A stretch of 63,551 nt of DNA, filler included, from Dugesia japonica (Eukaryota), in the NCBI GenBank assembly GCA_001938525.1. It is 5 parts of 5 records of this genome, joined end to end, with 100 filler letters (N's around TTAATTAATTAA, not from the genome) between each part and the next. Parts side by side here need not be neighbours in the genome. Positions count along the whole stretch, not along the records: positions 55,232 to 63,551 come from MQRL01598416.1; 4 more parts are not named here. One strand, written 5' to 3'. The notes below the pieces were generated by a model. That model saw nothing but the letters and a program-made list of their open reading frames with translations, searched no databases and was not told the origin of the DNA. Position numbers and translations under genes: made by a program. This document shows, piece by piece, positions 32,092-63,551 of this stretch. How positions within the stretch are numbered: the first letter of the stretch is position 1; each line of letters opens with the position of its first letter.

Positions 32092-32147
32092 GTAATTTTT
32101 TTTTTAAAAATGTATTTAAAGAAAAATAAATTTGTCAAATAAAATAG

Positions 32148-33570: not shown

Positions 33571-33720
33571 GATAATAATTCTTATTTTCGATTTTGTCTT
33601 CGTCAGGAAAAGTTAATTCCTGACGAAGACAAAGTCGAAAAGTAGAATTATTATCAAAAACAAAAAATAAATTTGATCGAAGTTTTATTTTAATAAAATC
33701 TCAAAAACGATCAGTTACAA
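33571..33720. mobile_element. Inverted pair of Penelope pseudo-LTR ends with back-to-back hammerhead cores
   Basis: 85-nt imperfect palindrome 33571-33655 followed by the family tail. Confidence 0.8.
33614..33650 (+). ncRNA. Minimal type I hammerhead ribozyme
   Basis: TAATTC-CTGACGA-A-GAC aaa GTC-GAAA-ag-TA-GAATTA; stem I closes U-A where the 50987 copy has C-G. Confidence 0.7.
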
Positions 33721-33812: not shown

Positions 33813-35640
33813 TGGCGTCCACGCCGAAAATGTTAATGTAGTGACACGCCAAAAGCAACAAAAAGATGACTCCGAAGCTTATAAATTTTAATATAAGAAA
33901 ATTTGATGTCAAAAATGCTTCAGAAGCTACATAATGACTGAAAGAAATCGAAGAATGGCTCATTTTGAATGATTTTAGCTTGATGGGATGTTTTGATCTC
34001 TTTTTATTAGAGGAAGCTGGAGTTTTATGGAAATATTCAAAGTGGAATGGAAATACGAAAGGAGAGACAATGTGGTTTGTAAGCACTTTTACAATAAAAA
34101 AATCTATCACGGAAATGATAATGGAGCTTGCAACAGTTAAAAAGATTCAGGAGAGATTTGCAACGTTCCAGATATGATTAAGAAATTAAGTTAACTGTGT
34201 TTTGAATTCAGGGTTAAGTCATGACAAAATTATAAATGATTTGCTGACAAAGAAAGTCAAGAATCGAAATTTGCAAGAGACACTTATAACAAGACCAGAT
34301 ATTAAAGTTGCCGAGGTGAGATTTCTGGCAAAAATATATGAAGATGAAAAACATTTTAAATTCGTTGCTGGAAATTGAAGATATTTTAACTCAATATCGA
34401 GAAAGAATTAATCAAATGTGTTAAAAGGAGACCAAAATAATCATGAGAGNNNNNNNNNNNNNNAGTAGTCAATTAATTTTAAAACCAATAATAATGTAAG
34501 ATATGAAAAACCAAGAACAGAAATGTCAACGTCTCAGAGAAAATACAACGAGAGGATGTCACAACCGGTGATTACAGAGACACAGTGTTTAAGTAGGAAG
34601 CTCGAGAAATGTTACGGCGTTTAGTACAAAAGGGGGTCAATTTAGGTTAAATCGGATCCCATTCGGGATAGCAACTGCACCGGAAACATTTCAAAAGTTT
34701 TTGCATGATATGTTACCAGGGGTAATTTTTAAAGGTGTTATTATATATTATTATATGGAAAGATAGTTGAAGTTCATAGAGAAATATAGAAAGTAGTTTT
34801 TAACAGAATCAGAGAATCTGAATTGAGGATAAATCCAGAAAAATGCAAATTTTACCAAAAACAACTGGTCTTTTTGCGACACACAATAAGTACAGAAGGA
34901 ATAAAAACAAACGAAACTAAAATTCAGGAAATAAAAATTCCTGAAGAACCAAAATTTTCATTTAAACTCAGATCTTTTCTTGGCTTAACGAATTTACTAC
35001 AGGTGTTTTATCAAGGATTACTCCAGAATTGGAACAACTTCATATGAAGCTATTCCAGGATGTGACAAAGCTTTGATGTGGACAGAAGCATACTGAACAA
35101 AATTTGAAAACTTAAAAGACAAGTATTTTAACGCATAATTTGAGATGAATTATCCGTACGATAAGAGATATGATTACAACTTCACTTAAAGGAAATTGTA
35201 GCGAGAAAAACTGGGATGCATTATCAAGAATTAAGTTCAATATAAATGCTACTGTTCAAGAGTCTACGAAATTGTCACCATTTGAGATTATTTTTGAAAA
35301 GCGGATAAATTTGCATGCCAAGAGGGAAACCTTTCTGTAAACAAAAAAGTTAATCTAGAGATAGTTAGACAAAATTTAAAAGCAGCAGCTAATAGAATGG
35401 CAAACTCTGAAAATGAACAGCGTGGACACAGAATTTTTAAAGTGGGGGAGCAGGTGTTAGTTTGTGTTGAACCAAACAAAAGAAAGAAGAATGACTCTCA
35501 TTATGAAGGACCATATCAAATAATAAAGTTCCTATTAGACCTGCAAGTAGAAATAAAATTTCCTCATTCTTCATAGTACAGAAGAAGAGAATGGCATTAA
35601 AAGTGGAAAGTAGTTTGAAGAAGGAGAGAGTTACAATGAT
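33813..35640 (+). mobile_element. Internally deleted Ty3/gypsy element (gag, RT and integrase fragments)
   Basis: Candidate primer-binding site tggcgtccacgccg at 33813; LRINPEKCKF...LRSFLGL; NATVQESTKLSPFEII; YEGPY; polypurine tract gaagaaggagagag at ~35618. Confidence 0.85.
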
Positions 35641-35740: not shown

Positions 35741-35790
35741 AATCAATGGTTACGTCCAACAATTATTCTCGTAATAATTGTATTTGTAAA
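35741..35790 (+). repeat. Penelope pseudo-LTR tail fragment
   Basis: atcaatggttacgtccaacaattattctcgtaataattg. Confidence 0.7.
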
Positions 35791-36759
35791 ATGATTGCAT
35801 CAATGTTAATAAAATCGTCTAAAGACAATTTATTTTCAATGATAACACCACTTGTTTTGTATATAATTTTTTTAAAAAAATCCAAAGATAGCTTGGTATA
35901 AAGTAGTTACATAGTGGTACTCCAGCTCACCCATCCCCGGGCTGAAAAGTTTTTTAGACCGACATTTTTATTCATAGAAATTTAGCTGAAAATTTTAAAA
36001 AACTTTTTTATTTTGGGAATTTGGAATTCAGTCTTATACACGCACTCACAAAAGGTTTCGTCCTGGCTTTTATCATGGTAAACATCATTCAAATCAAAGG
36101 TTTATTGTGATGAAAAATATCATAGTTAAAAGTGAAGATTACATATACACAATAAATTAAATGAAAAATAACATTGCGACTCTCTCCAAGGAATATTAAC
36201 ATTGAAATCTAGTTGCTCCCTGAGTGGTCATTAATATTAAAATAAAAATTCACAACCAAAAAATTAAATGAAAGAACACTAGAATTCTCACCGAGTAGAT
36301 TTAATATTATAATAATAGTATAGACATAACAAATTAAATAACAAAAGAACAGAAGATTTTTAAACAACAATATATTCAAATTAAATCTTCTTTTCTATCC
36401 ATCTGATTGAGTTATCTGAGACTTGTGAGTTGAATTTTTAAATAATAAAAATTATATAATTTCAATTAACAAATAAAAACATTAAAACCTTTACATTGAT
36501 TAGATAAANTTATTCATTACGGTTTGAAATACTATAATGCCCATATAGTATACTTTTATTTTTATCTACCNATACATGCATATCGTATGTATTAGTCAAA
36601 GCTACTTTGGAACGATTAATGCAAAATAGTTGTTGGTCTTAACTGCAAATTCCTTATTGGTTAACTGATAACTTTTGATTATTATTACAACAATTAAAGT
36701 GCGACTGATGATTTATGTTGGTACCTTTTAATTTTATTCACTTAGCCTTCATAAATGTT

Positions 36760-39007: not shown

Positions 39008-39271
39008 GCTTTTAAAATTGCCCATGGTAAACCGTGGCCTTTGTTGATTATCCTTTGTAGTGTTTCAGCAATTGTATCGGGGTTTCTTGACAATGTAACA
39101 ACTGTTCTCTTGCTCACACCAGTGACTATCAGATTGTGTGAGGCTCTTAAAATGGATCCAAAAAGAGTACTTATCGCTGAAGTTTTATTTTCAAATATTG
39201 GAGGAACTGCTACAGCTATTGGTGATCCTCCAAATGTTATTTTGGTTTCATCAAATGTACTAAGTAAAAAT
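39008..39271 (+). CDS. OCA2: P protein (OCA2) exon
   Basis: [22 protein letters not shown]...[22 protein letters not shown], the ArsB/NhaD/P-permease signature, nearly identical to OCA2. Confidence 0.97.
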
Positions 39272-40049
39272 GTAAGTTTTGTTATTTAGTTATTTTGAGG
39301 ATCTTTCTTAAATTATAAGTGTTGGAGTTTCCAACACAAAAGGTTATAAAACTAAAATAAATTTCTAATTTCTTAAGAAATAACTAGACTTTAAGTGTCA
39401 GGTAAAGGTCCGTCTAGGAAGAAATTAAACTTTGTTTAATTTAGTTTGTTTTCTTTAATTCAAATCTTCTGAAAATTCAAATTAATTTTCTGTAAACCTT
39501 GATTTAAAAAAACAGTTGATGGGAATTGAACGTGAATCATTATTTNTACTTATTTTCCAACACAATGTCAAAAATATTTGAATTGATAACAAGAACTAGA
39601 AACCATCATTTTGATTTAAGCTTTTTAATTTATTGAAACTTTAAAGATAAACAATATTTAAAAATTTCCAAACACACGATTCAATTTACTTTTCTATTTT
39701 CCTTTTAATTGATACATTTAAACAATCAAATACTTTAAATATTTATTTTAAATATAAATTTTACGTTTAATTTGGCAAAGTTTAATATTTCAAAAATTCA
39801 TTTTAATATATGCTTTAAAAATTGTTTTTAATTAGTTTTGTTAATATAATCTTGTTAAAAAATAAACAAGAATAATTTTGGAAATTTAATCAATTTAAAT
39901 AAGTAGTTTAAACATATCCAAAATTTATTTTTACATGAATAAGAAATACATTTAAAATTTCATATTACGTGTATAAATAGAAATTGACCTGCAATTAGAA
40001 GCAAATTAACTTGAAATTTATTAAAGAAATGGTGTTTATTATAACTTAC

Positions 40050-41108: not shown

Positions 41109-42454
41109 GAGGTCTGAAATGAAAAGTGAGTAAAAATGGTAGGTCAGTGAAATACGTAAGAATATGTTATCACGAGTATCACACAATTACTCTGCAATAC
41201 AGTACCAATAAACTGTGTTAGGTCACTTGAGGAAGTGAAGAATGCACATGTGATGTGAAATCACGCGTGGTCAACACAACCATAGTCATATATTAATATT
41301 TGTATATATTTATCTTTCAGAGTGTAGACAACCTTATGGATAAAACCACATATCATAATCACTCGATACTTGCTGATATTTGACGTTTACAAATTTATAA
41401 CTCGCGCACTTTTTGTATACAATATATTTGTATGATGTATAAACTGTTAAGCTCAATCATCTATGCCGAAACATATTCATAGGCACTACAAAGGCAGAAA
41501 TCATCATTAAGTTACTTAAATTGACATAAAATGCAGTTATTGACTTTATTGGCCTTAAATGGAAAAATTGACTTTTTGTTGACCTAATAACTTTTTATAG
41601 GATGACGTAAATAGTTAGAAATCACATATTTGAATTTTTCTCAAAAAATTAAATCTGATATTTCAAGTTAACGTTATTGACTTTTTGTGGCTCTAATTAT
41701 TAGGTTAAGAATATTTATTGTGGTACAATGATTTTTAAAGATATTATTTTTATCTGATAATTTTGAAAAAATAATAAAAAATTAAATTTTTAATCGCAAT
41801 TTATATTAAAATAAAATAATAAAATAAAATAATAAAAAGTGATCATTTAACAAAATTCATAAAATTTCATAAAACTTTCCATAACAAATTACTTATTAAC
41901 TTATCATGAAAAATGACTTATTACTTAAATCAAATATACACAATAAAATTATTTAAACAATGTCTATAACAGGGATNNNNNNNNNNNNNNNNNNNATGAA
42001 TAATTGTTATTCGGTTGATTGAGGATTTTGCAGGATTGATTGAATATTATTTCGAATGTTATTTTGCTTACATATTAGGATATAAAACCAATAGTTCAAA
42101 GAGGATCACTAATATAATTGTCAGATAAGATCATGTAGGTATTTGATCTTCTATGGGTTGTTGATTTGGAATCTCGATAATTAATTTGTTTTAAGGGCTT
42201 CTGTTTTGATTGTATATCCACGTATTGTTATGAATGTCCGTATATTTGAATATAGTGCAAATGTTGTTTTATATTATCTGCTGTATACATTTTGTATGTT
42301 TGTTTTTTTTATTTTTCAATTGTTGCCTTCCCTAACAAAATTATTAAAAGTTATAAATATAAAAGCTATAAAATTATTGAAAGTTAAACATAAAAGATTA
42401 ATTTCAAATCGATAAAATTAATTTTCAAGTAAAATTATTAAATTTATTAAAAAT

Positions 42455-42665
42455 TTTATAATTACAATTATTGTGAGAATAATTGTTGGACTTAACCATT
42501 GATCGGATTTGAGATTTCANNNNNNNNNNNNNNNNNNNNNNNNNNNNNNNNNNNNNNNNNNNNNNNNNNNNNNNNNNNNNNNNNNNNNNNNNNNNNNNNN
42601 NNNNNNNNNNTTTTACAAATAAATTTTGTTTTGTTTTGATCGAAGCCTTATCTTATTTTAATGAA
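42455..42665. repeat. Inverted Penelope pseudo-LTR pair spanning an N gap
   Basis: Minus-strand tail gagaataattgttggacttaacc before the gap and plus-strand ttttgatcgaagc...ttttaatgaa after it. Confidence 0.65.
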
Positions 42666-47888: not shown

Positions 47889-48618
47889 ATAAATTTTGAA
47901 AAAATAAAAGGTTATATAAATATCAATAAATAATATGTTTAAAAAAAATAATATGAATTAAATAAAAAAAAATTTTTAATATTAATTTGAAAAAACTTTT
48001 AAAAAAAAATTAATTTTGTAAGTCTTTATTTAAGTCTTAATTTTAGGTCTTGATTTTTTTACGTCTTAAAAAATTAATTTTAATATAAAAATAATTCTTT
48101 TTTTAATTGATTTTAAAAAAAAATTTGTTAAAAATATTGCCGTTCGAGTATAACATAAATAAAATACTAATTATATATACAGTAAATAATTTTTAAAAAA
48201 ACAAAATTTAAAAAATTTTAAGTATAATACAATATAATAATTGTAAAAAAAAATTCCTAAAGTTTTAAAAAGTTAATTTAAAAATTAAAATTCATAATTA
48301 AATAAACCAATAAAATATCGATAAAATCTAAANNNNNNNNNNNNNNNNNNNNNNNNNNNNNNNNNNNNNNNNNNNNNNNNNNNNNNNNNNNNNNNNNNNN
48401 NNNNNNNNNNNNNNNNNNNNNNNNNNNNNNNNNNNNNNNNNNNNNNNNNNNNNNNNNNNNNNNNNNNNNNNNNNNNNNNNNNNNNNNNNNNNNNNNNNNN
48501 NNNNNNCAATTATTCTCACAATAATAGTAATTATAAAATTTAATACTCAATTTAATAATTGGCTTTTTCATAGTAAATTCAGATTTCTTAGAAAATCGAT
48601 TTGATATTTGTTATGCTA

Positions 48619-49810
48619 TTAGGTTGATGCATAAATCCGCTGAATATTTTTTAGAGTAACAGTGCTTAAAAATTAAATGCTGCTAGGCATATGTTAAAGT
48701 TATATTAATGACATACATTTGATAAAACGAATTATATTTTAAATTTCGATTTTAGTGATAATTTCAATACGATTATTTTCAAATAAAATAGAGCGTCAAA
48801 CATACTTTCATTTCCGGCATATATTATTATTTGAATTCAACAGAAGATTTAAGTCATCTGAAAATGCTAAGGGCATTTTTGCTGTTTATAGACAGAATGC
48901 AATTATAGCAAAGTAAAGCACAAAAATGGTTTCCCGTTTCAGAGGACCATTTTGACAAACTATTTTAAAAGTACTGGATGACAATCAAACAATCATGAGG
49001 ATTATATGGTTGTCTTAATTCATGAAAATCCATACAAAACAATTCTGGAATTAGCCATTATGACGGACGACTATAGTACGACATTTAAAATTCATGGGCA
49101 AAGTTCAAAAAATGAGCGTATATGTGCCGAATGCTTTGACTAAAATTAGCGTGTCAACATTTGTGACTTAATGCTAGCTCGTCATTGCTTAACTAGTCAG
49201 AAACTTCGACCTATTTTGTCTCACATTATTAATGGTGATGAAAAATGGTGCCTTTACGAAAACACTAAGAAAGTAATATTTTAGACCTAGCGAATGAAAC
49301 TTTGTATTCGTCCGCGTAAATTTGTGTTGTGCATTTTGTGAGACAAAAAGGTGTTATTTACTATGATTTGCTTCCAAGAAATATAACATTCACTTCCTGT
49401 ATTTATTGTCAACGACTCCGTCGTCTTGAAGCCGCAATTAAAGAAAAAAAGATTGGAAAGATATCATTAAGTCATTTTTAGCACGAAAACGCTCGTGCTC
49501 ATACTGCTAACATCACAAAGGTGGTCATTCTACATCTGCCATACTTTCCAGATTTGCATTTATTTCGATCTCTTGCTATTGATATTCAATGAATCGCCTT
49601 TGATGACGTCGTCGCGCTTCAAAATTGGTTCGATAATTTCTTTATTTTCAAACTAAAGGATTTCTTCAGCCTCGGAATCGAAAAATCGCCAAATCCTAGG
49701 AAAAGAATTTTAAATAAGGAATGGAATAGTTTCTTGATTAGTACTTGTACTTTTGAAAATCAATAAAATTTCATCGAAAGAAAACGCTACGGACTTATGC
49801 ATCAACCTAA
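48619..49810 (+). mobile_element. Near full-length decayed mariner element
   Basis: TA target duplication; terminal repeats ttaggttgatgcataaatccg / cggacttatgcatcaacctaa; IINGDEKW, HENARAHTA, HLPYFPDL. Confidence 0.93.
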
Positions 49811-50332
49811 TAGTTCTTCATTAATTTTTATAATAATTAATCCATTTTTGATTTGCATATATTGTTAATGTGATTTGGTGTTTTTACTATTTTTGGGTAT
49901 TCTATTACACTATAATAATTGATTGGGTTCTGTCCCAACAAACCTATTAAGAACAATAATTATTTTTAATGATTCAAAGCTACCTGGATCATTAGAATAC
50001 TAATCTAATGCAATTGTAAAATAAAGTAAGCATCACAAGTGTAGATAAAACTCCATTAAACAGATAATGGAAATTCTCTTCAAAATTGAATTTAATCTAC
50101 CATTCTAAGGAGATAATTGTCTTTAATAGGTTAATTAAAAACATTCTTACAGGATATTTATTTAAACATCGAAATTTATTTAATTATTTTTTTCAAATGA
50201 TTTTCTTAAAACAGTAACGAAATTATGTACGAAAATGTTGTTTTATTTTCAAAAATTGTTTAATCTGTATTTTAATCAGAATTTTTTAAAATTTGTCTCT
50301 TTTAATAAAAGGTTTTCATTGGTATTTTCCAG

Positions 50333-50473
50333 GTTGAATGGCAGAAAGTNGCTTTGGGAATTCAAGAAATTTCTGCTCAGAATCCATTGGTAAAACAGGC
50401 TCGAAACTTTCTAACAGATTTAAATCTATCTGATTCAAGTTTCGACTCCATGTCAGAATCAGAAATGCTGTGA
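50333..50473 (+). CDS. Probable terminal coding exon of an unidentified gene
   Basis: Acceptor ttttccag|, 46 open codons VEWQKVALGIQEISAQNPLVKQARNFL...EML then TGA, GC content above the flanks. Confidence 0.6.
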   Translation, partial: VEWQKXALGIQEISAQNPLVKQARNFLTDLNLSDSSFDSMSESEML

Positions 50474-50699
50474 TAATTAACTTTTGAATAATGTGACACG
50501 AAAATTAATTCATTATTCGCAGTTAATTAAGTGTTGCTTGGATTGTCTATTAGATATTATGTTATGCTAATCAACTAGTAAATTCTGATTTCATTATTCT
50601 ATCGAATGTGATTTATCAGATAAAACACTAATCTAATCAACGTAATTACTTTATAAATAATATTGCTGAAGTTATTTATATAAAACCAAATTTCAAACA

Positions 50700-51081
50700 G
50701 AAGTAATTAGTAATTAAAGTAAAATCTTCAAACACTTTCAACACAAGCATAAAATTTCACCAGAACAACATCACAATGCATGGAAAACACTAGGANNNNN
50801 NNNNNNNNNNNNNNNNNNNNNNNNNNNNNNNNNNNNNNNNNNNNNTAAAGAAGACAATTTTAAAATAAATGTAATTTATAATAATTAAGTATTTAAATTA
50901 AAATTAACCAATTAAAATTTAGTAAAAATAAATTAATTCACAGAAAATTACTATTATAAGAATAAATATTGAATGAATTAAACAGTCAATTCCTGACGAA
51001 GACAAAGTCGAAATATCGAATTGTTATCAAATGGTCAATGGTTATGTCCAACAATTATTCTCGCAATAATTGCAATTGTAA
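50700..51081 (+). mobile_element. 3' end of a Penelope-like element: GIY-YIG remnant followed by hammerhead-bearing pseudo-LTR
   Basis: 50700-50794 is a paralogue of 47710-47795 and the hammerhead follows within ~200 nt on the same strand. Confidence 0.8.
50987..51023 (+). ncRNA. Minimal type I hammerhead ribozyme, best-preserved copy
   Basis: CAATTC-CTGACGA-A-GAC aaa GTC-GAAA-ta-TC^GAATTG: 6-bp stem I, 3-bp stem II, palindromic AUAU stem III, AUC cleavage triplet at 51015-51017. Confidence 0.82.
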
Positions 51082-51099
51082 AGGAAGTAATTAGTATCA

Positions 51100-52350
51100 T
51101 AATTCTTACAGCTATTTCTTTTATATCTGCCTGGGGACTCACTGCAAACCTGGTAGAATTCCACAAAGAATGACGTCTGACTTTCAAATACAGATGATGA
51201 CTCGTTGTTTGAGTGTATTCTTGAATTTCTTTCATTCGGGTCTTTCCTCGCATGTGATATTCGTTTTGTGTCGATTTTCTTGGTGAGTGTCTGGTTACCA
51301 TGTCTTTTTCAAATGTCACTTTAACACCGTATTGTCTTTACTCATTGATATTTTCAATGATGACTGATATCTCTGCAATATTGATTAACCACCTCATTCC
51401 CCATATTATTGTTGACACTGACTTCAACATTGTGTTTATACTTTTGATCAATAATAATCAGGGCATGTTTTATTGTCTTTATAATAATATTAGGAATCAA
51501 GAAATGAGTTAACTCGGAAAGTTATATTCTAGATTAGCATTATAGATTACTTAGTACATTATTATTTAAATCCAATCATCACATAATAACCGTGTAATTG
51601 ACGAAAATGTTGCTCAATACGATTAATATATAACTAATGCGGATCATCACCTCTACCAATTGTGGATATGATTTCATTTAATCCTTTAGTATCATATCTA
51701 CACGAGAAGGATTATTTTATATTACTTATTGGGTTCTGTTTTAACAGTTAAGAACTTTGTTGAAAAATTTTTAACAGTAGCTCTTAAAACAGAACCCAAT
51801 AAGTAATCATATCGTTGATTAATTTTGTGAAATATACCGCGACTTATAGTTATCAGGAAGTAATCATTAACATCTTCAAAATTCTAGCTACTCTAATTAG
51901 CTGATTTTTCTTATATTTTCATATCAATTTCTTATTATTGGCAAACTTCTCATTAGCCTAATTATTGATATTCAAAAACTCCAATTGGCTACTTTTTAGA
52001 GCCCTTTAACTCTTTATAACTTGAATATTGGAATCCACTAATTGTTTCAACTATAATTTTCTTGTTTGCAGCATTGTTCCAGTTGTCTATTTATGTCCAT
52101 TCTCTTTATGTAATAAATTTACCAGCTATTCTTACTCACTTTATTTTCATTTATTAGTGGTTCCTTAATCATCTAGTAATATTTGTCTCGAATTACCATT
52201 ATGATACTTCCCATTCTGATTTATTACTTTGCATATGCAGCCCATTGGTTTTAGTTTACTGTTCAGATTACGTCTGCTACATATCTTATATTCTTTGATC
52301 TTCCTTTGAATTCTTAGTGTACTCGTCGATTTTCTCTTGATTCTGAAAGT
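51100..52350 (-). mobile_element. Heavily decayed non-LTR retrotransposon-like remnant
   Basis: Purine-rich minus strand with broken coding-like stretches; only weak resemblance to LINE C-terminal motifs. Confidence 0.3.
51721..51807. repeat. Hairpin with perfect 24-bp arms (mini-MITE)
   Basis: attacttattgggttctgttttaa / ttaaaacagaacccaataagtaat. Confidence 0.85.
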
Positions 52351-52544
52351 TTGAAGTGTCTCATCTTAACTTTATTATTATTATTTCAAAGTATTGCAGG
52401 AACAAAGACAATGGGGAAGAGGTGTTTTCTGAATTACCATATCGTGAATTTTATCCGCTGTCCATTCTTATAAAGATCTCTCGAAACAATGTTTTTGATT
52501 TTGTGATGTCCGAAATGCATGAATTAATGATAATGTTTTAGTAA

Positions 52545-53030
52545 AATTGTGAAGAATGAGAGTTTATATGGATGATATATTAACATTTTCAGAAATTGTA
52601 GAACAGCACAATAGAATATTAGACCTAGGTTTTAAGAAAATTCAAAAATTAGGATCAAGAAATAATTCGGGAAAATGTCATTTATTGCAAGCAGAAGTAG
52701 AATTTTTAAGGCATGTCATAGATAAAAATGGATTTACAAACAATCCGACAAAAATTGAAGCAATTTAAAATTTTGGAAGACCTACATGTGTGAAGGATTT
52801 GAGAAGGTTTTTAGGAATTTTCAATAAATATAGATTGTTCATAATTAATTACTCGATGGAAGCTAAAAGTCTACAAGGATAATTTGTAAAACTTGTGTGG
52901 TCGGACTGCTGTGATAGAGCTTTTTATGATTCGAGAGGCATTGACAAAAGTACCTATATTGAGTTTACTAGACATAAAAGTGTTTGTTCTAGACACAGAT
53001 GCGAGATTTGATGCAATAGGAATATTATCA
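52545..53030 (+). mobile_element. Ty3/gypsy RT and RNase H fragment
   Basis: VYMDDILTFS, KCHLLQAEVEFL, DLRRFLG, FVLDTDA. Confidence 0.88.
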
Positions 53031-53689
53031 GAATAGGAATATTATTAGAATATGTCCGAAATACATTTAAAGTGGTTTTTTAATGAATAGTGGTAATTTT
53101 GTCTCACGTGTTTTTTAATGGAAAGAAATGATATTCATCAATCAGTATCTACACGAGTGCAGGCACAATTTTTAAAACTAAAATTTTAACTCATTATATT
53201 AATTGCCACAATTTAAACTCAATTTTATAAATTTTATTTAAACCCAAATTGATCGAAACGATTTCATTAGATTCAAATTTTCATTGCAAAATAAACTTTC
53301 AATGATAAAGTTTTTCAGTATTTGAATAAGAAGCTTGATATTTCAACAGCCCGAATTTAATTATTTTATTTGCAATACAGATTCGATATTAAAAACTTAC
53401 AATTCAATTTTATCGATAACTTAAATCGAAACCGAATCATCATCATGCTTAAATTGTCTGATAGTTATATCATTGCGCAAAATTAAAATTAATTGCAAAA
53501 TGAGTTTTAACTTGATTTATTGAGAAATAATTTAGTTTTCGTGATTTTAAACTCAAGTATCTAAATACTCGAATATTTTATGATCCGGCTAATCGTAAAA
53601 TTTTATTATTTAATACCCAGGTATTAATCAATTTGGAAAATATGATGCATTCAAATATGTATTCAAATAATTTATTTTTTATTAATAAA

Positions 53690-54960
53690 ATAATATTCAA
53701 GCAATCCAATCTAAAGGCTATCTAAAGTTTCCATTTTTAATTGATTACCCACTTTAGTTAGGAAGCTAGATGCTGCTGAAAACACTCTCACTAGATATAT
53801 AGGTAGGTTGAATAGTCAGCAAAACCTGATACAATTTTTCGAAATAATATCCTCTTTTTCAACGATTTACTTCAATCAGGGTAGTTCTTTTTTTAACGTT
53901 GATAGTCTGCTCTGTTGTGGGAGTGAGCCTATTGTTTTTTGCATTTCAGTCAAAGTAAACACTTCATGTTCTGAATCCGTTTCTTGTTTAATATTTCCAA
54001 CTAAATTTTCAGATGCAAGAAACAACTGTTCAACTGTCTCCTTAGCTGACCACTTCATCAAGTATTTTTGAAGAATATTTAAAATAATAATTAGTCAATT
54101 AAAAATAATAATAATAATTTGCAAATTTGGATAATTACTATTTTGTAAAAAAACAATAGCGATATAATATCTTTGTTTCGTTTTTATTTGATTCCTTTTT
54201 TCAAGGCTAGTATCATTTCATTTAAGAGATAGGTATCAGCTTGTTGCAATTTATTTAATAGAAAAATGAAAACTACTTCAGCTTTAAGTAAATTGCTGTC
54301 CTTTTTGCTTAAATCTTTAACTGCAAGCTGTATAGACTCAAAAACTTGCGATATTTCCTTTAAAATATTGATGTTTGCATTATCAAATTGTTGCTGGTCT
54401 AGTTCGATTAACAGTATTTATACAGTTACTCAATTTTAGAAAATAATTTATCATAGGAAGCATAGAGTTCCACTGAGTTTTGCAGTCAAGTAATAATCGA
54501 AGTTTTTTCCCTTCTTGCTTGAATACATGTTTCTGAAAAATACTACTTCTTACAACTGACTTTTTGAAAACGTTTATTATTTTAAGAGTCTCAACTAGAA
54601 CTTTTTCAATATCTTTACAAATTTCTGGAATATCACTTATAGCTTCATCTTCAAAATTCAAATTATAGTCAGAAACCAATAATTTAACGTATAAATTGGT
54701 TATAACATGGTTATAACATAACTGAGAAAATGCTTGAAATTCTCGTCAATATTTGACCATAACTGAAGCTCCGTCTTAGGTTAAGGAGACCACATCTGAA
54801 TTTGAATACATTCTTAACTTTACAAGCTTGTCTTTGAATAGCCTTATTGTAACATCAGAATCACAAGAACCTTCGATAGGTACTAGGCCAATAACGCAAG
54901 GCGACATTACTGTTGAGTTGATGGTAATATTTATCTAACTTCTGATTTTAATGTCACTCA
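53690..54960 (-). mobile_element. Decayed hAT transposase
   Basis: LLLDCKTQWNSMLPMI, AVKDLSKKDSNLLKAE, SESVFSAASSFLTK; related to the 9200-10826 type. Confidence 0.85.
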
Positions 54961-55131
54961 CTGGTACTAATAAAACAGGTAATACACACCCATAGCAATT
55001 TAAGACAACTTACAGTACAGTGCTCTAGTGTAGTCATTCACTTATTCATCTGGCAAAGTACTGGTAGGAATATTGCTTGCTTGTTAACTTAATAACTTTA
55101 TAAATAAATTTGTTTGCATTTGATTATTCTC

Positions 55132-55231
55132 NNNNNNNNNNNNNNNNNNNNNNNNNNNNNNNNNNNNNNNNNNNNTTAATTAATTAANNNNNNNNNNNNN
55201 NNNNNNNNNNNNNNNNNNNNNNNNNNNNNNN
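55132..55231. other. Artificial contig linker
   Basis: 44 N + TTAATTAATTAA + 44 N. Confidence 0.95.
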
Positions 55232-55233
55232 CT

Positions 55234-56046
55234 CAATTAGTAGAAAAACATGGTTCTACTTACATAACAAGAATAATTTATTCAAATAAAATTATACTCA
55301 GAGTACCGGAAGATAAGAAGAATATAATGTATATCTCTGCGCATATAAAAGATAGCCCGAGAGTATACAAGGGGAAGGGTCAAATAGAAATAGGAGGATT
55401 AGAAGCTAACACTAAATATAAACTCTGGATATGGGTGCGAACAGGTAGATACAGGGTAGTAGAACATCATATATTTACTACACTGCCTAAGAAACGAGAA
55501 CAAGAAAAGTTAGGCGCAACAAGGATGTCATTAAAGACGCAATATACGAATATTCTGACAAAAAAAAGAAAGTTGAGTACAACCAAACCACAATCAGAAA
55601 AAACTATCCCTTAAGCAAAATCACAAATAAAGACACAATATAGAACTATTCTGACAAAACAAAGAAAGTTGAGTGCAACTAAACTACAACCAGAAACAAC
55701 TATTCCTCATAATACACCAGTATATGGTAATGCCATAATGACAAAAAAAATTAGAAATGAAAATCTAAAGAGAGATCCAAAAACTTTGAATAGTAACAGA
55801 AAATTAAATTATCAACAATTAAAACATGAAATTCTACATATGTTGGTTACAACAACAATAAAATCATTTGACATAAAAATACTACATCACCCTTTTACAG
55901 TATTGGGAATGATTGCAGTACTCTTCCTCCTCGCTTTCATAATTACATTAATTCAAATGCATAANCGATATAGGTGGAAGAGGCAGCGTTATCGGCGTCG
56001 CAATACCCCACAAATTCCGAATTGTGTCCAATGGACATTGGTCTGA
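55234..56046 (+). pseudogene. Fibronectin type III + stalk + single transmembrane protein, 5' truncated, one in-frame stop
   Basis: Frame is open from the contig edge; IEIGGLEANTKYKLWIWVRT...FTTLP (FN3 tyrosine corner); 96-nt tandem duplication; TM VLGMIAVLFLLAFIITLI then an Arg-rich tail. ORFs 55327 and 55669 share a frame across the TAA at 55612. Confidence 0.7.
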
Positions 56047-56301
56047 ACACCCTGCGGAAATTTTAAAAAAATAAATAATCTATATTATTATGTATACATA
56101 TTTTTATTTATATAATCAGCTACTAATACCTGTAGCAGTATATATGACTAACCAGTCCTTAAAATCAATCACTAATTATTCATTTATTTTAGAAAAAACA
56201 TTCGAACAATCTGTAGTTGTAATAATCAGTCGACAGTTGATACAGTCCAAAATACAAACACAAATATTTATACATAACAATCAATCAAGTATACGACATA
56301 A

Positions 56302-57478
56302 CATGCAGGCACATAATAATATAGCAAGACAAAATAATAAAAGCAATACTAACAACACACAGAAAAGTAATAATCAATCAAACAGAAATATACATACAGA
56401 TAGCAATACAGCAAATGTGCCTTCACCCTCTACCTTTACCACAAAAAGTATTCCTAAATTTTACGATAACATTCAGAATTTTACATTTAAAGAGAAACAA
56501 ACAGAACCCAGAATAGAAACGTTTACCGAAGTAGAAAAAATCCTTAATTCACCAAAAAATAACACTTTTGATTAAGACTTAATCATGATACGATTTCAGG
56601 AAGCAAAGCGATATACTCTTCAGCAGTTAATAGGTTATATAAAGATCCCTAAGAATCCTGAAAGTTCATTGATAAAAGGGAAGAGTTATAAAAGCCATTC
56701 AAATGCATGTTACAAAAACCCCTATAAAGTTTACACATAATAAAAGTGAAATAACGGTAATTAATAACATTTCGCTAATAATTGAAGAAATAATAAATAA
56801 AGATATAAATACTATTAAAGTAGCCATACAAAATATCCCAGCAGTNNNNNNNNNNNNNNNNNNNNNNNNNNNNNNNNNNNNNNNNNNNNNNNNNNNNNNN
56901 NNNNNNNNNNNNNNNNNNNNNNNNNNNNNNNNNNNNNNNNNNNNNNNNNNNNNNNAAAGTATGCAGTATTGACAAAAGAAGATATCGACCAACTTACGGT
57001 GTATATTGATGTGAAGACTGTGAAAGATGAATATTTCAACCCAAAATTGATAGAAATCACCATTATGTCAAATAATGGAACTATTTTAATGGACGAAACC
57101 CTCTGTCCAAGAGAAAGAATTAGACATTTCGATTCACACATCACAGGATGTGACCAGGAGAAAATTAGACAGTATAAAAATGCCTATCCATTGATATTAA
57201 GAGCAAGACAACTTCTTTATGGTCAAATATTAGTAGGTTATAATATTGGGAAAAATTTGATTAGTTTTCATATGGATCAAAGGCACGTAATAGGCATTAG
57301 AGATCTCGCAGAGGAAAAATGGAGACGATTATACACCCCGAATGTCAAAAAACTCAAACTCCTTAACTTAATGGAAGCAGTGTTCAAGCCATTAAAACAT
57401 GAATATATTATAAAAGATATGCATATATGTATATATATAAAGTATTTGTATGACCATTATTATATTATGAGTATGTGA
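56302..57478 (+). pseudogene. REX4/ISG20-like DEDDh 3'-5' exonuclease with Asn-rich N-terminal extension, decayed
   Basis: VYIDVKTV (ExoI), GTILMDETLCP, ITG, LLYGQILVGYNIGKNL (ExoII), IRDLA, HEYIIKD (ExoIII-like). Upstream part has a stop, a frameshift and an N gap, so its link to the nuclease domain is inferred. Confidence 0.75.
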
Positions 57479-57603
57479 TTTAATATGTATATATACTTTC
57501 AGAATATGGAATTAGCAGTTCAATCTAGNNNNNNNNNNNNNNNNNNNNNNNNNNNNNNNNNNNNNNNNNNNNNNNNNNTAATATGTATATATACTTTCAG
57601 AAT

Positions 57604-58870
57604 ATGGAATTAGCAGTTCAATCTAGAAGAAGCTTCTTACAAAACAATGCACAAATCGTACTCTACGAAAAAAACAGAAACATAAAAAATCCCTTTGATT
57701 ACAGTTAGCGTGATGCAGCTCTTGTATCCTTAAGTATTGACCACGATCCTATATGCCCTTTATGCTACGACAAACCCATAATGCCAAGAATAGCTCAGTG
57801 TGGACACTTTTTTTGTTTCTCTTGTATTATACAATACTTTGACATAACAACATCAAGTGTCGTCCCTTGTCCCTCAGGTAGAACTTACAAAATTCACCAG
57901 CGAAATCTTATACGTACCAAAATCTGTCACCAACAAGTTCCAACAATTGGGCAATTTGTACCTTTCACCTTACTAATAAAAATGCCACATAACAACAATC
58001 TTAGATTTGCTCACTTGACACCTTTCATGTATCAAATCGACACCCCAGATAGAAGCGACCTCACTAGTGAATTCCTCACTATATGCACACAACGTGATTC
58101 CATCTCAATTAAACAAATCAATGATGATATCCGTACTATTAGTTACGGACCCCTTCCTAATAAACAAAAAAGTAGATTAATACAGTTATTAAAAGGAGAA
58201 TGCTCTTATTTCTCAGATACAATTAAAATCCTGAACAAATTGTAATTTAACCGAGAATTCACAAAAGCCACCAGAGACGGAGACAGATATAATTTGATAG
58301 TCCATAACACCGAATTAAAAAATTGTTCACACGTTTACCAGACAGCCAAATACCCACGAACATTTTTAGACCATAAACAAGCAAATAAATACCTCAAATC
58401 CGCTCCAGAAGACATCCCTTTTCGTATGGGTGGTTATATAGAAATAATATTCAACTTAATTATTGATAAGGCCTTACATCCCAGTACATGTTTCTCATTC
58501 CTGCTTGATGGCCTGATGATTCGTATAATTTAAATACGAGTGGACACTATTTCTACCCCAAAAAGACTTGACGCCCTTAGCTATCTTCACTTACATGCTA
58601 AGCAAGTGAAGGAAAAGATCATGGAAGAAAATAAAAGGTTGCAAACAATTGCTGAGGAAAGTATAACTCGTATGGGCCAACCAGCTCGAATACTGTCTAG
58701 AGTAAATAACCCGAGAGACATCTTCTATTGAGAACCTTCCAACTCCCCTTCTAGTATCGACCCCGAATATGAATTCCCCGCTTGTATATTTAATGAACCC
58801 TGTATGGATGAAATACCATCAGCCTACCACGACATGGCGTGCCCGCGATTCTTATTCACACAAAGATGAC
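57604..58870 (+). pseudogene. Intronless, divergent RNF10/MAG2-like RING E3 ligase with in-frame stops
   Basis: SFLQNNAQIV (RNF10 LFLQANCQFV), CPLC..PRIAQCGHFFCFSCIIQY..CP, IGQFVPFTLL, VYQTAKYPRTFL (FYQAEDGQHMFL), coiled coil, EFPA. One reading frame with stops at 57706, 58243, 58531 and 58729. Confidence 0.8.
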
Positions 58871-59659
58871 GGAGCATCTTTTCGCAAGGGGGTACATTTG
58901 TTGAGATCTGAATATATACATATACATAACATAGCATGCAGGCAAAATATAACATTTTTCAAATCAACACCTAAAAGAATCAAAGGGGTATTCGAGTTCA
59001 TTATTCAATGCAATCCAACTCAAGATCAAATCAATGAACTTTCTATNCTTGATATAAAAACAATTATGATTTATTTTATTTTGTGAATATTTGGAACATT
59101 TATATTATTTGGAACATTTATTTTTATTTTTAACATTTGTTTTTATCTAAAAATGTTTTATGTTATGAATAATATTTTTGCAAAGTTTTATATTGTAAAT
59201 CATAATTTTTGCAAATAATAATTTTAATTATTTAAAAAGTCAGTTTGTTTTAATGATTTATTTTAATTTCTATTGATGTGTGTATAAACCTACGGATGTA
59301 AAATCAGTATAAATACTGATGAGTTTTAGCTAATTTTCAGTAACTTTTGATTCAACTAGAATCCAACCTCTCTGGGCAGCATATCTAGTTTGATTCTAAA
59401 TTATTGCTAATAAGCTATAAGGTGTTTATTGTGTATATACCAAAAATAAAACTTTTAAAAGGTATTCAATAGTTATTTATATAAGGGAATNNNNNNNNNN
59501 NNNNNNNNNNNNNNNNNNNNNNNNNNNNNNNNNNNNNNNNNNNNNNNNNNNNNNNNNNNNNNNNNNNNNNNNNNNNNNNNNNNNNTAAACATATTATTGA
59601 AAAATAGTTATAAAGTAATCGAACCATAAAATAACTTGTTGAGTAGAAATACCAAACAA

Positions 59660-60043
59660 AGTCTTAAAGCAGAAAATAATTCTGGTTCCAAGCAACGATT
59701 GTAGAGTTGTGCTAATTTATACAAATTTATTGAAACCTACATATTTACCACAATTGTTAGCAATTGTAAACATATATTTTTAATATCATAGAGATTCAAA
59801 TCTGGTGGCTCTAAAGGCTTCTTGCATCCCATTATTCTACATTTTCCTGTTCTAAAGAAAATAATCGTATACTTGTCACCTTTATCTGTACAACTATTTC
59901 ATAGTAAATAAACCATTCTAGATTTCGGACATTTAAAATTGTATACTTTTATCTTTGAATTGACATGGTTTTCCTATCGGAAAGCTTAATTTTTTCGTTA
60001 CTTCTAAGGACGTTACTCCAATGTAATTAATAGTAGTTATCAT
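59660..60043 (-). pseudogene. Highly divergent TATA-binding-protein-fold gene fragment
   Basis: MITTINYIG...KPCQFKDK|NKGDKYTIIFFRTGKCRIMGCK...INLYKLAQLYNRCLEPELFSALR (compare TBP LIFSSGKMVCTGAK and YEPELFPGL). Frame is kept by a putative 61-nt GT-AG intron (59946-59886); one TAG. Confidence 0.7.
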
Positions 60044-60619
60044 ACTTAATAAATTTGAGAGGAGCATTGAGGTTTGTTGGAATGAATTTAATTGATCCGT
60101 TAAAACCAATATAAAAAAGGAAATAAATTATAAATAAATTCTGAAAAACAAGATGAGGATATTAGGAAATGACGATGTACATCAAATTGTTGTTAACAGG
60201 AAAACTTTGATTTTATGTAAATTATTAAAATCGAATTTATTCAAGTCAAAATTTAACAAAATATACTGACATAGAGGGGCAGATGAAGAGAATGGACAAA
60301 TTCAATCTGAATTTTAAAATATTAAAATACTCGATAGATAGTGGGGGTCATAGCCAGCAAATATTCAGTAACCCGCCCCTCGTGACTTAAGGAAATTTAA
60401 TACTAATGCATTTAGTTGGGAATTTTAAAAAATGATATCATATTAGTTAATATTACGAAATGGGATTAAGTGTCCATGGATTTCCCCTGTGAATTTAGTT
60501 GTTAAAATTTTTTGCAACCAAATTATGTAATAAGATTAATTTCATCGTCGAGATTTTTACGTAATAGGATTAAGTGGCTATGTATTTTCCTGTGGTTTTA
60601 GTTGTAAAATTGTTTTAGG

Positions 60620-61605
60620 CTTTTTAGTTAAGGATTTGCTCAGTGAGGTTGAAATATGTCAATTTTTGATTAGTTTTCAATGGTTTTTGTCTAAACTTTC
60701 CTCGGAAATGGTTATTTTGGTCAATTATTCGGTTAATTGGTCAAATCTTTACTTGGGATTGCTCTGTTTGGGTAATTTTTGAACGATTTGGTCAATTTTT
60801 GGTTGGTTCAGGGAAACTTGGCTCATTTTTGGATGAATCGGTGAATTAATTACTTGAGAAAGGTAACTTGGTTAATTTTAGGCAATATTGGTCAAATTTT
60901 TCCTCGGTTTTGCTCGGTTTGGGCAAACTTGGTCGGTTTTAGGTAATTTTTGAGCGATTTTGTTAGGAATTTATTCGGTGAGATAGATTTTTGATTTGAT
61001 TTAGATCGTGTTTGTCCAAAATTTGCTCGGTGAGGTCAAATAAGGTCGATTTTCTGTTGGTTTAGGAAAATATGGTATAATATTTCCTCGGGATTGATAA
61101 TTTTTAGGGGATTTAGATAAAAGTGGTTGAAAATTTTCTAAGATTTCGTTAGCTTCGTTAATTTTTTGGGTGATTTGGTTAAAAATTTCCTTGGGATTAG
61201 TAATTTTCAGGTGATTCAGTCAATTATTTCCTCGGGATATGTCAGGTTAGGTAATTTATGGGCATTTTGGTCAATTATATACTCAAAAAAGGACAATATC
61301 GAGCAATTTTGAGAGATTTGGTCCAATATTTCTACCAGATTGATCATATTGACTCAGTTTTCAACAATTTGATCAATTATTTACTCGGTTTAATTAATAT
61401 TGGTCAAACTTTTCATCGGTGAGGTCGAATCTGGGCAAACTTGGTCGGTTTTAGGTTAATTTGGTCCAAGTTTCCTCGTGATTCGTCAGTTTGGGTAGTT
61501 TTTGGGTGATTCAGTCAAATGTTTTGTCGATCTGGTTGCATTTGGCTCATTGTTTGGCGATTTGGTCAATTATTTTCTCGGAAGGGACAAACTTGGTTAA
61601 TTTTA
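60620..61605. repeat. Degenerate G/T-skewed satellite
   Basis: Recurrent motifs gatttggtcaa, tttcctcgg, ggtgaggtc and gggcaaacttggtcggttttagg (60921 and 61433). Confidence 0.85.
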
Positions 61606-61859
61606 TGCTCACAAGGGTTATTTAAAAGTTTCATATAATAATAAAGGAAAACAATAAGACTGAGTGAGACCTAATATAATATGCATTTTATTTAAATTAA
61701 TAAAACTATTTCAGTATATTTTAATAATCTTATTGTACTTCAACTTCTTTGCTTGCTTTTTGGCAACTCTGCTTGCTCTTTGGTTTTATGGGTTTCTATT
61801 TTCTTTTAAATACCCAATAATCAGAAACATTGTTAAAGAATATTGTTGATATATTTTTC

Positions 61860-62050
61860 AACATAGAAAATACTGATCTTATCATCAGAAATATTGATCT
61901 CGTCATTATATTAGTTTCAATAGATAAAGTTATAGTTTCATCATTAAAAACATGGGGTTTATCATGAAAATGCTGGTTTCATCATCAAAATGTGTTTTTT
62001 ATAATGCAAACATTGGTTTTAACACGGAAATATTGGTTTTATCATTGAAT
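61860..62050. repeat. ~20-bp minisatellite
   Basis: aaatattggttttatcatca-like units. Confidence 0.75.
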
Positions 62051-62279
62051 ATAAGACTCTGAAACTAGATATTTTTAATACAGTAAATCTAGATATATTG
62101 ATATTTTCATCACTTAGACCAACACAGGGACAATCAAGTAATACTTATTCAATTATTTCTTATTCAAACTAGGTTTCGTTTCATTGTCAGTAAGTTTCCT
62201 TGAGTAAAGTTAGAAAAAATGATAAGTAAGGACAAGAATGAGAAGGATCGAATTTTCTAAAACTCGTGAGATTTAATCT

Positions 62280-62540
62280 GAAATTTTATAGTAGTCGATA
62301 AATATTTTATGAAATTGCACAGTAGTCGATAAAAATAATTTGAAATTGCACAGTAGTCGATAAAAATAATTTAAAATTGCACAGTAGTCGATAAAAAATT
62401 TATGAAATTGCACAGTAGTCACAAATTATTTTATCAAATTTTACAGTAGTCGATAAATCTTTTATGAAATTGCACAGTAGTGACAAATTACTTCATGAAA
62501 TTGTATAGAAGTATTAACACATTTTATGAAATTTATATGA
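62280..62540. repeat. ~29-30-bp minisatellite
   Basis: ttttatgaaattgcacagtagtcgataaa, about 8 copies. Confidence 0.9.
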
Positions 62541-62779
62541 AATAAGCAAGATGAATGAATAATATGTTGCATTACATACAAAGTATGTGTCCAGTACAAG
62601 TGTGAGAATAGTGCAATATAAATGCTACTCACTCGACATTCTAATATTACTCAAGGAAATGAATAAATGGAAATTACTGATTCTAATACTGACAAGTTTC
62701 ATGACCCACTAATTCTTTCATATAGTTACTTGGTAAAAATTGGTTTCAATTGTTAAAATTATAGGGGACAATATCAAAA

Positions 62780-63020
62780 CATACACCATACTCGTTACCA
62801 ACAGATTTATCAATACAATACTTGCTATCATCAAGTCTTGATACATAATGATCGCTACCATTACTTCTTAACATATACAATACTCACTGTCAGTAATTAT
62901 TAACATACACAATACTCGCTACCTTTAAGTCTTAACATGTACAATACTCACTAACAACAGTTATATCAACAAAATACTCGCTACTAAAACAGCTCTTAAT
63001 ATACAGATTACTCGTTATCA
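62780..63020. repeat. ~30-bp minisatellite
   Basis: caatactcgctacc...ttaacata, about 8 copies. Confidence 0.85.
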
Positions 63021-63269
63021 TAATTTACCTATTGATTATTCAGTTGATGGTTTAATCTGTTTATCGTCTATTTCATATAGTCAACCTTATATTTCATATT
63101 AAATATATACTTTGCAACCAATAACCGATTATTTCTTAATATATTTTCAACTTAATATAGAAATTTCCTTTGACAATAGATCTTCTAATGTGCTTTATTA
63201 ACCAATTAATCATATACTTGTATTATAAACCTATTCTTTCATTCAATGAAATTCTAACCAATTATCCAT

Positions 63270-63464
63270 GAATTCATTTAAAATAAAAGCTTCGATCCAA
63301 ACGTTTGTTTTTTATTGCTATTTGATAACAATACAATATTTCGACCTTGCCTTCGTCAGGAATTGACATTTTTTTTGATCAAAGCTTTTATTTTAAATGA
63401 ATTCTGTGGTTACGATTAGTGGTTACGTCGAACAATTATTTTCGCAATGACTGCAATTGTAAAA
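63270..63464. mobile_element. Inverted Penelope pseudo-LTR pair with a minus-strand hammerhead core (63330-63365)
   Basis: Reverse complement reads caattc-ctgacga-a-ggc aag gtc-gaaa; inverted arms gaattcatttaaaataaaagcttcgatc / gatcaaagcttttattttaaatgaattc. Confidence 0.8.
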
Positions 63465-63551
63465 CAATTATTCATGAGCCTAATACTTACCTTTGGAAAT
63501 AATTAATTAATTAAATTTTCAAAGAAATTCTTATTCAATCAATTAAAATTT

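Follow-up and report, generated by a model that had tools for sequence, protein, structure and literature searches.

The block at positions 55232..60043 of the Dugesia japonica DNA that we analysed (a stretch of 63,551 nucleotides, hereafter the window) is likely to be what decay has left of the 3' end of a Ty3/gypsy LTR retrotransposon that exists in many copies and has a tail of three accessory genes. One of these encodes a RING protein for which we predict ubiquitin-ligase activity on the ribosomes of the host. A preliminary description had seen in the block four genes moving as a single unit, the candidate cargo of an undescribed large mobile element or endogenous virus. A multi-copy mobile element with divergent host-type genes is indeed what we find, but the carrier appears to be Ty3/gypsy rather than a DNA virus or a Terminon, and only three of the genes belong together. 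The TBP-like gene is probably separate, as it lies beyond the likely LTR start, on the far side of a gap, and has decayed further. We assign the carrier to Ty3/gypsy with fair confidence, because an integrase is fused to the membrane protein in a relative found on a metagenome contig (L001), and because the window contains a polypurine tract and a likely LTR start. A four-gene unit, a DNA-virus carrier, single-copy retrocopies and a contaminant were all rejected as explanations.

Directly upstream of the block lies an artificial spacer of the scaffold (55132..55231, composed of 44 N, 12 bases and 44 N, with the same spacer at 17370, 28676 and 45090), and the 5' end of the block and the expected pol gene are therefore cut off. 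In the window, where the block's 5' side ends at the spacer, we saw no reverse transcriptase, integrase, env, primer site, paired LTR or target duplication. Downstream of the spacer are three co-oriented + strand reading frames with no evident introns (55234-56046, 56303-57478 and 57604-58869), as had been described, and the intergenic distances, claimed to be about 250 and 27 nt, measure 256 and 27 nt. The shorter distance is the true spacing once an assembly artefact is allowed for, namely an exact 48-nt duplication flanking a 50-N gap (57481..57626). The A/C-rich, G-poor character of the strand is likewise evident, with coding-strand skews of AT +0.20 and GC -0.12. The contrast drawn earlier with host genes of small exons kilobases apart is weaker than claimed, since the window also has two frames without stops, 399 and 349 codons long, one of which encodes C2H2 fingers. 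Rfam gave no matches within 55232-63551.

The relative is an intact 6,071-nt metagenome contig (Ga0073919_1000310) and carries P0155, a near-identical cluster member, with one or two residues different, of P0007, the one near-full-length match to the window's RING protein among the best 150 hits, discussed below. L001 encodes, all on one strand, a fusion of integrase, signal peptide, FN3-like part and transmembrane segment, then an RNF10-like protein, and then a 691-aa ORF. The integrase is of Ty3 type (E 8e-14 against Gag-Pol of Ty3), and the contig's skew (AT +0.18, GC -0.18) is in line with that of the window. The gene order differs, the exonuclease gene preceding the RING gene in the window and following it in L001. 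L001 has both of these frames without a break, 22-27% identical to those of the window, which implies long selection, and the retention of the gene set in two elements with such dissimilar proteins indicates that the set is old. Gag, protease, RT and RNase H were seen in neither of the two truncated loci, and we found no longer relatives; specifically, none of 1,753 candidates was a longer relative of the L001 membrane part.

L001 also bears on another possibility, in which a DNA virus or a Polinton-like element carries the three genes and the likeness to L001 arises by gene exchange between element classes. Accessory exonucleases are shared among rotifer retroelement classes (PMC5408684), Polinton-like MELD viruses carry TBP-like genes (PMC8502044; bioRxiv 10.1101/697771), and the discordant gene order would fit such exchange. 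We nevertheless consider it very unlikely, as L001 has all three gene types downstream of a gypsy integrase, the last gene in the window is immediately followed by a polypurine tract and TG, and our scans of viral contigs confirmed no relatives of the exonuclease, of P0007, of the TBP alignment or of L001 ORF1. Neither the frames of 48000-63551, where the surroundings are fragmentary, nor the viral-contig scans contained a pPolB, capsid, packaging ATPase or inverted termini.

The first gene of the retrotransposon tail (55234..56046, + strand) holds the 3' part of a frame for a type I membrane protein, with one stop, at 55612. It specifies, in order, a beta-type N-part, a Thr/Lys-rich stalk containing a 96-nt tandem duplication (55532-55707), a single transmembrane helix (residues 222-240) and a short basic tail. 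This architecture is common to L001 ORF1, and gene 1 is likely to be the end of a Pol polyprotein, as in L001. Sequence similarity between the two membrane proteins was not detected, since 830 and 906 of 1000 shuffles score equally high. As for the earlier label FN3-TM, the transmembrane part stands, while FN3 describes a motif without a Pfam or PDB match; Pfam fn3 detects domain 1 of L001 weakly (E 0.079) and nothing in the window's gene. The AlphaFold model of the L001 ectodomain is all-beta at a low-confidence pLDDT of 46, and Foldseek returned nothing for it at E 0.001.

The second gene (56303..57478, + strand) encodes an N-terminal domain followed by a REX4/ISG20-family (DEDDh-type) exonuclease-like domain (56957-57475), and is damaged by a single stop at 56573, a shift of frame around 56680-56735 and a 110-N gap. 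The proposed REX4-like identity is supported by an Atlas search in which 27 of 30 hits were RNase_T clusters, with best scores of 0.93-0.95 and 186-196 shared features in the best three hits. The domain also matches ISG20L2 at E 0.008; a direct Pfam scan of it gave no match, and the AlphaFold model of the exonuclease was weak (pLDDT 34), with nothing found by Foldseek at E 0.001. The 691-aa ORF3 of L001 is homologous to this gene: the exonuclease domain score of 94 was reached by none of 2000 shuffles, and the score of 50 for the N-terminal piece by 10 of 2000. In low-identity alignments, acidic residues at the catalytic positions of SDN1/ISG20 are absent from both elements, the unbroken L001 frame included; at least two aligned positions of the window frame, and three or more of L001, hold non-acidic residues. 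Judged from these alignments, the protein is probably a catalytically inactive pseudo-enzyme in both elements.

The third gene (57604..58869, + strand; stops at 57706, 58243, 58531 and 58729) encodes a compact RNF10/Mag2-like RING E3. The RING is recognised by Pfam zf-C3HC4 at E 1.3e-6, and its eighth zinc-ligand position is altered in the window copy. The RNF10-like identity suggested earlier was corroborated by a profile built from 60 cellular-type hits, which matches residues 36-175 at E 1e-31 and reaches only that part of the protein. We take the family to be RNF10/Mag2 from recognition of the architecture; no looked-up hit bore that name. The second conserved RNF10 domain, which follows the coiled region, is present in P0007, where the whole RNF10 architecture spans residues 40-368, and in the window protein it is poorly conserved and visible only in a multiple alignment. 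A search of 1.84 billion representatives gave 311 hits, and among the best 150 of these P0007 was the sole near-full-length match (12-420; 23% identity), with a pairwise E of 2e-17; a word-based protein search returned none of 1,476 candidates. In a quick tree of 36 of 151 sequences, the window protein and P0007 grouped only within a long-branch clade that includes a third protein (SH-aLRT 95), with branch lengths of about 2. P0007 furthermore scores higher against the cellular-type hits than against the window protein. These results leave a common origin of the two RING proteins less than firm.

The 3' end of the RING gene runs into a conserved signal (58862..58905, + strand) comprising a 7-bp hairpin (58862-58881) that overlaps the stop of the gene, a T run, a polypurine tract (58886-58893) and a TG at 58899. 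The polypurine tract and TG, at 58886-58900, contradict the preliminary statement that no termini are visible. From its position after the polypurine tract, the segment 58899..59060 (+ strand) is likely to be the first part of the 3' LTR, and the skew of the element strand stops near 59060. There was no second copy of this LTR piece within the window and no depth jump inside it (365-1,466 at 58923-59046). Separately, an 18-letter pattern of the hairpin had three matches in viral contigs, which we attribute to chance, as they had neither a polypurine tract nor protein similarity.

Reads were mapped to 57627-59046 only, that is, on 1,420 nt covering the RING gene and the 3' end, and this region is present in many diverged copies. 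Indeed, 957 and 994 contigs were placed on it in two DNA runs, most of them less than 95% alike. In run X1, summed depth over the RING gene was about 297-859 in 18 of 23 bins, compared with 5-11 for 15 of 16 listed long contigs, although summed contig depth does not equal copy number. The maximum fell at the hairpin and polypurine tract, with summed depths of 8,203-12,492 in bins of 58862..58905, and this 45-nt stretch is the only part to which RNA reads of related elements fit (58861/58862 to 58905-58909; 42 reads and 1 read placed, none 99% alike). At the four RING stops, 90-100% of the depth carries another letter, and at several places the window's own letter was found in no contig, so that some of the breaks may be assembly errors, or this copy may be absent from those animals.

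It is thus scarcely credible that the block consists of unlinked host retrocopies or comes from a contaminant contig, even though the best families of all three genes are cellular gene families. Hundreds of divergent contigs cover the RING gene region, the same gene set stands behind an integrase in L001, and a share of 0.32-0.46 of the block's words is present in each of seven DNA-type runs, which come from three studies and a single organism, with no RNA runs among those listed. We thus encountered none of the findings that, according to the preliminary description, would have refuted it: single-copy genes, near-identical retrocopies or a contaminant.

The remaining gene (59659..60043, - strand) is a broken copy of a gene of a 150-residue mini-TBP family. 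Its TBP-like identity was recognised correctly: there are six intact relatives at 54-73% identity, which match Pfam TBP in two stretches (E 2e-13) and PDB TBP (E 3e-13). The window copy keeps residues 1-105 only, having suffered an insertion of about 60-67 nt and the loss of its last third, and shows no A/C-rich coding skew. With these features, and its place beyond a 95-N gap, the earlier view that all four genes decayed together does not hold for this one. We consider it probably a separate element that landed beside the retrotransposon. Alternatively, it might be a fourth accessory gene of the same carrier, one that retunes transcription and is placed antisense within a 3' LTR that is very long and contains genes. 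Its location only about 760 nt past the likely LTR start, with tandem arrays following, is compatible with this, as is the size of planarian Burro elements, which exceed 30 kb in total and have LTRs (PMC6431247). Such an arrangement seems unlikely, given that the gene is separated from the likely LTR by the gap and by AT-rich sequence in which the skew is reversed, that the gene is more decayed, and that its relatives are 54-73% identical, whereas no relative of the other genes exceeds about 30% over long stretches (for the RING gene, among the best 150 of 311 hits). L001 also has no TBP-like frame, although that contig ends before its LTR. The mini-TBP family constitutes a separate, unnamed lead.

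Extrapolating from L001, the Pol polyprotein of an intact retrotransposon of the window's family would close with a signal peptide followed by FN3-like domains, a stalk and a membrane anchor, a portion that signal peptidase would set free to serve in attachment at the surface. Separate proteins would be made from the RING and exonuclease genes. Cellular RNF10 ubiquitinates the 40S protein RPS3/uS3 (PMC11604940), and the element's RING protein would similarly mark or compete for stalled 40S subunits. By this analogy, its action could keep the element's long mRNA translated or bend host ribosome quality control, which we regard as a reasonable possibility short of probable. More tentatively, the dead exonuclease might bind element RNA and shield it from host trimming or RNA surveillance. 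If the RING protein is active, the element would be a genome parasite with a handle on host 40S turnover. An invertebrate gypsy retrovirus lineage may even have acquired accessory genes in the manner of complex retroviruses, with a captured RNF10/Mag2 E3, a REX4/ISG20 RNA-binding decoy and an integrase-fused FN3 attachment protein, and use 40S ubiquitination to secure its own translation; we offer this broader proposal as less likely than not. An alternative on which we place limited but real weight retains the same carrier and takes the RING and exonuclease proteins either for decoys or anti-silencing factors with no tie to ribosomes, or for hitchhikers that evolve almost neutrally. It would be consistent with the strong divergence of both proteins (branch lengths of about 2), the missing catalytic residues of the exonuclease, the weak conservation of the C-terminal RNF10 domain in the window protein, and the case of rotifer accessory ORFs, for which the available text reports no clear advantage (PMC5408684). 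The unbroken L001 frames, with the long selection that they imply, and the whole RNF10 architecture kept in P0007 speak against it.

The element RING proteins resemble cellular RNF10/Mag2 in the C3HC4 RING and the following strand, and in P0007 also in the second conserved domain. They differ in being compact (420-445 aa, against mostly 500-800 for cellular-type hits), intronless, only about 22-30% identical and borne on mobile elements. We found no literature report of a transposon-borne RNF10, although Repbase entries or the original Burro description could hold one. Capture of exonucleases and of ubiquitin-pathway domains is known from LTR retrotransposons, but a ribosome quality-control ligase as cargo is unreported in the literature that we searched. 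The Juno and Vesta LTR retrotransposons of bdelloid rotifers have, as here, a captured 3'-5' exonuclease gene after pol (Rodriguez et al., PMC5408684). Their ORF3 is RNase D-like (DEDDy) with intact catalytic residues, whereas the present protein is REX4/ISG20-like, lacks such residues and, unlike ORF3, is accompanied by a membrane protein and a RING E3. The giant planarian gypsy elements Burro/GYPSM1 possess accessory ORFs and host-derived ubiquitin and apoptosis domains, their cargo (MATH/TRAF, BIR, ankyrin, BCL2, SUMO-like, dUTPase) being mostly in one polyprotein, and the text available on them mentions no RNF10-like, REX4-like or FN3-like genes after the integrase (PMC6431247). Burro-type domains (MATH, BIR, ankyrin, BCL2; polyprotein of about 5,000 aa) are absent from the 3' end of the window's element. 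A TBP-fold gene on mobile DNA, as here, is found in MELD/Polinton-like viruses (PMC8502044; bioRxiv 10.1101/697771), but the viral-contig scan found no link between these and the mini-TBP family. Lastly, the Platyhelminthes errantiviruses are GAG-ENV-POL elements with an HSV/gB-type env, represented in Schmidtea by six elements of 1-215 copies (Chary and Hayashi, PMC13524379). They are flatworm Ty3/gypsy elements like the proposed carrier in the window, and with POL as the last of their core genes, any additional genes would come after the integrase; the words fibronectin, exonuclease, RING and accessory do not occur in the main text of that report as available. It lists no LTR for the six Schmidtea elements, its LTR search having extended up to 3 kb past the POL stop and up to 14 kb between LTRs (PMC13524379). 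An accessory tail of 2.9-4 kb could defeat such a search, and the arrangement described here thus predicts where the unlisted LTRs of planarian errantiviruses may lie.

The block holds three frames on the + strand, namely the C-terminal end of a membrane protein (55234–56046; one stop, TM helix at residues 222–240), an exonuclease-like gene (56303–57478; one stop, one frame change, one gap) and a RING gene (57604–58869; four stops), with a TBP-like remnant split over two frames on the − strand (59659–60043). The preliminary description had placed the first three genes about 250 and 27 nt apart, and indeed the spacings are 256 nt and, once an exact gap-flank duplication is removed, 27 nt. Identical 100-nt assembly spacers occur at 17370, 28676, 45090 and 55132 (n = 4); the window is five joined scaffolds, and adjacency across the spacers may be unreal. 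Since the block starts right after a spacer, the upstream sequence is not trustworthy as its neighbor.

Pfam assigns the RING gene to zf-C3HC4 (E 1.3e-6). Scanning 1.84 billion representatives (cut-off E 0.001) gave 311 matches, and the best 150 have a common architecture that we take to be that of RNF10/Mag2; the name itself was absent from the records of ten matches looked up. Residues 36–175 match a profile built from 60 of the best 150 (E 1e-31), in agreement with an RNF10-like E3. P0007, a metagenomic RNF10-like protein, spans nearly the whole window protein (pairwise E 2e-17) and, of the best 150 matches, ranks first over the region after the RING, though with an E of only 0.019; it is itself closer to cellular-type matches than to the window protein. 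In a tree of 36 of 151 sequences, these two and P0005, a compact, divergent RNF10-like protein (319 aa) on a 7-kb Logan contig, form a long-branch clade (SH-aLRT 95). Common ancestry of the window protein and P0007 is plausible, if unproven; P0005 may represent a third element, or its grouping may be a long-branch artefact.

The cluster of P0007 lies on L001, a 6,071-nt metagenome contig (Ga0073919_1000310) and the one confirmed among 51 pattern matches, which has three unbroken frames, all on one strand. The first opens with an integrase of which only the C-terminal half is present (Ty3 Gag-Pol match, E 8e-14) and continues in frame through a signal-peptide-like hydrophobic stretch, a beta-rich region whose first part weakly matches Pfam fn3 (E 0.079), a stalk and a TM helix. 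An RNF10-like gene begins 250 nt later, followed by a 691-residue frame whose homology to the second gene of the window covers the N-terminal part (10 of 2000 shuffles scored as high) and the exonuclease-like domain (none of 2000 did). L001 and the block have an A/C-rich strand skew and the same three gene types in common, in L001 behind a gypsy integrase and with the RNF10-like gene ahead of the exonuclease-like one, the reverse of the block's order. The membrane proteins have a common architecture but no detectable sequence similarity, and of the FN3-TM label given to the first window gene the TM helix stands, while FN3 holds at motif level only. The carrier is probably a Ty3/gypsy LTR retrotransposon with three accessory genes at its 3′ end.

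The exonuclease frame has no match in Pfam and weak matches to SDN1 and ISG20 in PDB. RNase_T clusters account for 27 of 30 Atlas matches (REX4-like 0.94, ISG20 0.93) and a two-sequence profile matches ISG20L2 (E 0.008), which upholds the REX4-like identity. Acidic catalytic residues are missing, also from the unbroken L001 frame. The exonuclease-like L001 ORF (3801–5876) has 340 extra residues with no counterpart in the window gene, a linker rich in Pro and Lys plus a C-terminal aromatic part, which have no Pfam match.

No termini had been recognized in the block. We found that the RING stop overlaps a 7-bp hairpin (58862–58881); downstream come a run of T, a polypurine tract (58886–58893) and TG at 58899, a layout typical of gypsy 3′ ends. 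Over the hairpin-polypurine bins, summed contig depth reaches its maximum, 8,203–12,492 (two DNA runs), and reads of the RNA run X13 fit only from 58861/58862 to 58905–58909 and are unlike beyond; this stretch is thus a short signal common to many related elements, whose flanking sequences are unlike on either side of it. An LTR likely starts near the TG. No second LTR was seen in the window, and no depth rise inside the putative LTR (365–1,466 in two DNA runs), which counts against it.

The TBP-like remnant lies about 760 nt past the likely LTR start, beyond a reversed-skew stretch and a 95-N gap; an insertion of about 60–67 nt splits it over two frames, and its last third is missing. Six intact relatives among 16 candidates (P0163–P0168; 147–152 residues, 54–73% identity) match Pfam TBP and solved TBP structures, confirming its identity. 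Together with the remnant, these records, on contigs of 0.7–3.8 kb, make up an unnamed two-repeat mini-TBP family. That the gene resides inside a long LTR of the same carrier seems unlikely; it probably belongs to a different element. The proposal of a four-gene mobile unit is retained for the mobile carrier, given the gypsy-integrase linkage in L001 and many copies, but not for the fourth gene. Leads for the mini-TBP carrier are a Polinton-like virus or a long LTR. TBP-like genes are named for Polinton-like MELD viruses in the figure legends of two reports (PMC8502044; bioRxiv 10.1101/697771); a viral-contig scan gave no match to the family. A GC-box-like stretch lies upstream of the TBP-like start (about 60372–60386). 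Beyond it are a degenerate repeat of period near 51 nt (60500–61650) and tandem arrays of 31 nt (62279–62533) and 32/64 nt (62778–63003), and across 60500–63003 the minus strand is the A/C-rich one, so that the stretch looks like the end of a further large element oriented towards the block.

Of the words sampled from the block, a share of 0.32–0.46 occurred in each of seven DNA-type runs, all from one organism and spread over three studies; one of these runs may be that of the source sample. Read depth, a check named in the preliminary description, gave a multi-copy signal on 57627–59046: 957 and 994 contigs matched in two DNA runs, 657 and 677 of them less than 95% alike. Summed depth in the DNA run X1 was 297–872 in 18 of 23 RING gene-body bins, against 5–11 in 15 of 16 listed long contigs, which suggests a number of copies between some tens and about a hundred, summed depth not being copy number. 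At the four RING stops another letter makes up 432/432, 125/125, 334/372 and 407/412 of the X1 depth (similarly in the DNA run X2), and since nearly all depth differs, the stops belong to the window copy or are errors in it. Local depth peaks of 3,370–6,322 within the RING gene, at 58059–58106 and 58731–58826 (both DNA runs), suggest short stretches common to far more copies or sister families. In two RNA runs, 42 of 13.6 million and 1 of 11.6 million records matched 57627–59046, all only partial fits and none 99% alike; the window copy shows no sign of expression, and related elements are slightly transcribed.

Elsewhere the window holds ordinary gypsy fragments (18455–21516, 25758–27354, 35298–35576, 52165–52768; Pfam integrase and RT matches for two), decayed hAT-type transposase pieces (9191–10593, with a Pfam hAT dimerisation match at 10297; 53876–54745, by eye only) and about eight occurrences of a MITE-like short dispersed repeat with inverted ends (8922–9043, 27483–27638, 29518–29794, 33557–33693, 35742–35817, 42433–42519, 50957–51109, 63270–63490). 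Host-type coding pieces (23065–24114, 31861–32142, 39008–39289, 6028–7227) comprise a C2H2 zinc-finger frame, CitMHS-family (P-protein-like) transporter exons and a 399-codon Ser-rich frame with no Pfam match.

As to function, the Pol tail may be processed into a surface attachment protein, and the exonuclease-like protein, in which acidic catalytic residues are missing even in L001, would bind RNA instead of cutting it. RNF10 acts on 40S subunits, according to one report (PMC11604940). By analogy, the RING protein might free stalled ribosomes on element mRNA, or compete with the host ligase, a suggestion that we regard as tentative and somewhat short of even.

Among published systems, LTR elements of bdelloid rotifers have active DEDDy exonuclease genes (PMC5408684), and the cargo of planarian Burro elements includes domains of the ubiquitin and apoptosis pathways (PMC6431247). 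The main text on flatworm GAG-ENV-POL errantiviruses makes no mention of accessory genes, and six from Schmidtea are given without LTRs (PMC13524379). We found no report of a transposon-borne RNF10 in searches of the texts of openly available papers. An RNF10-type cargo would join the exonuclease and ubiquitin-domain cargoes already known from LTR elements.
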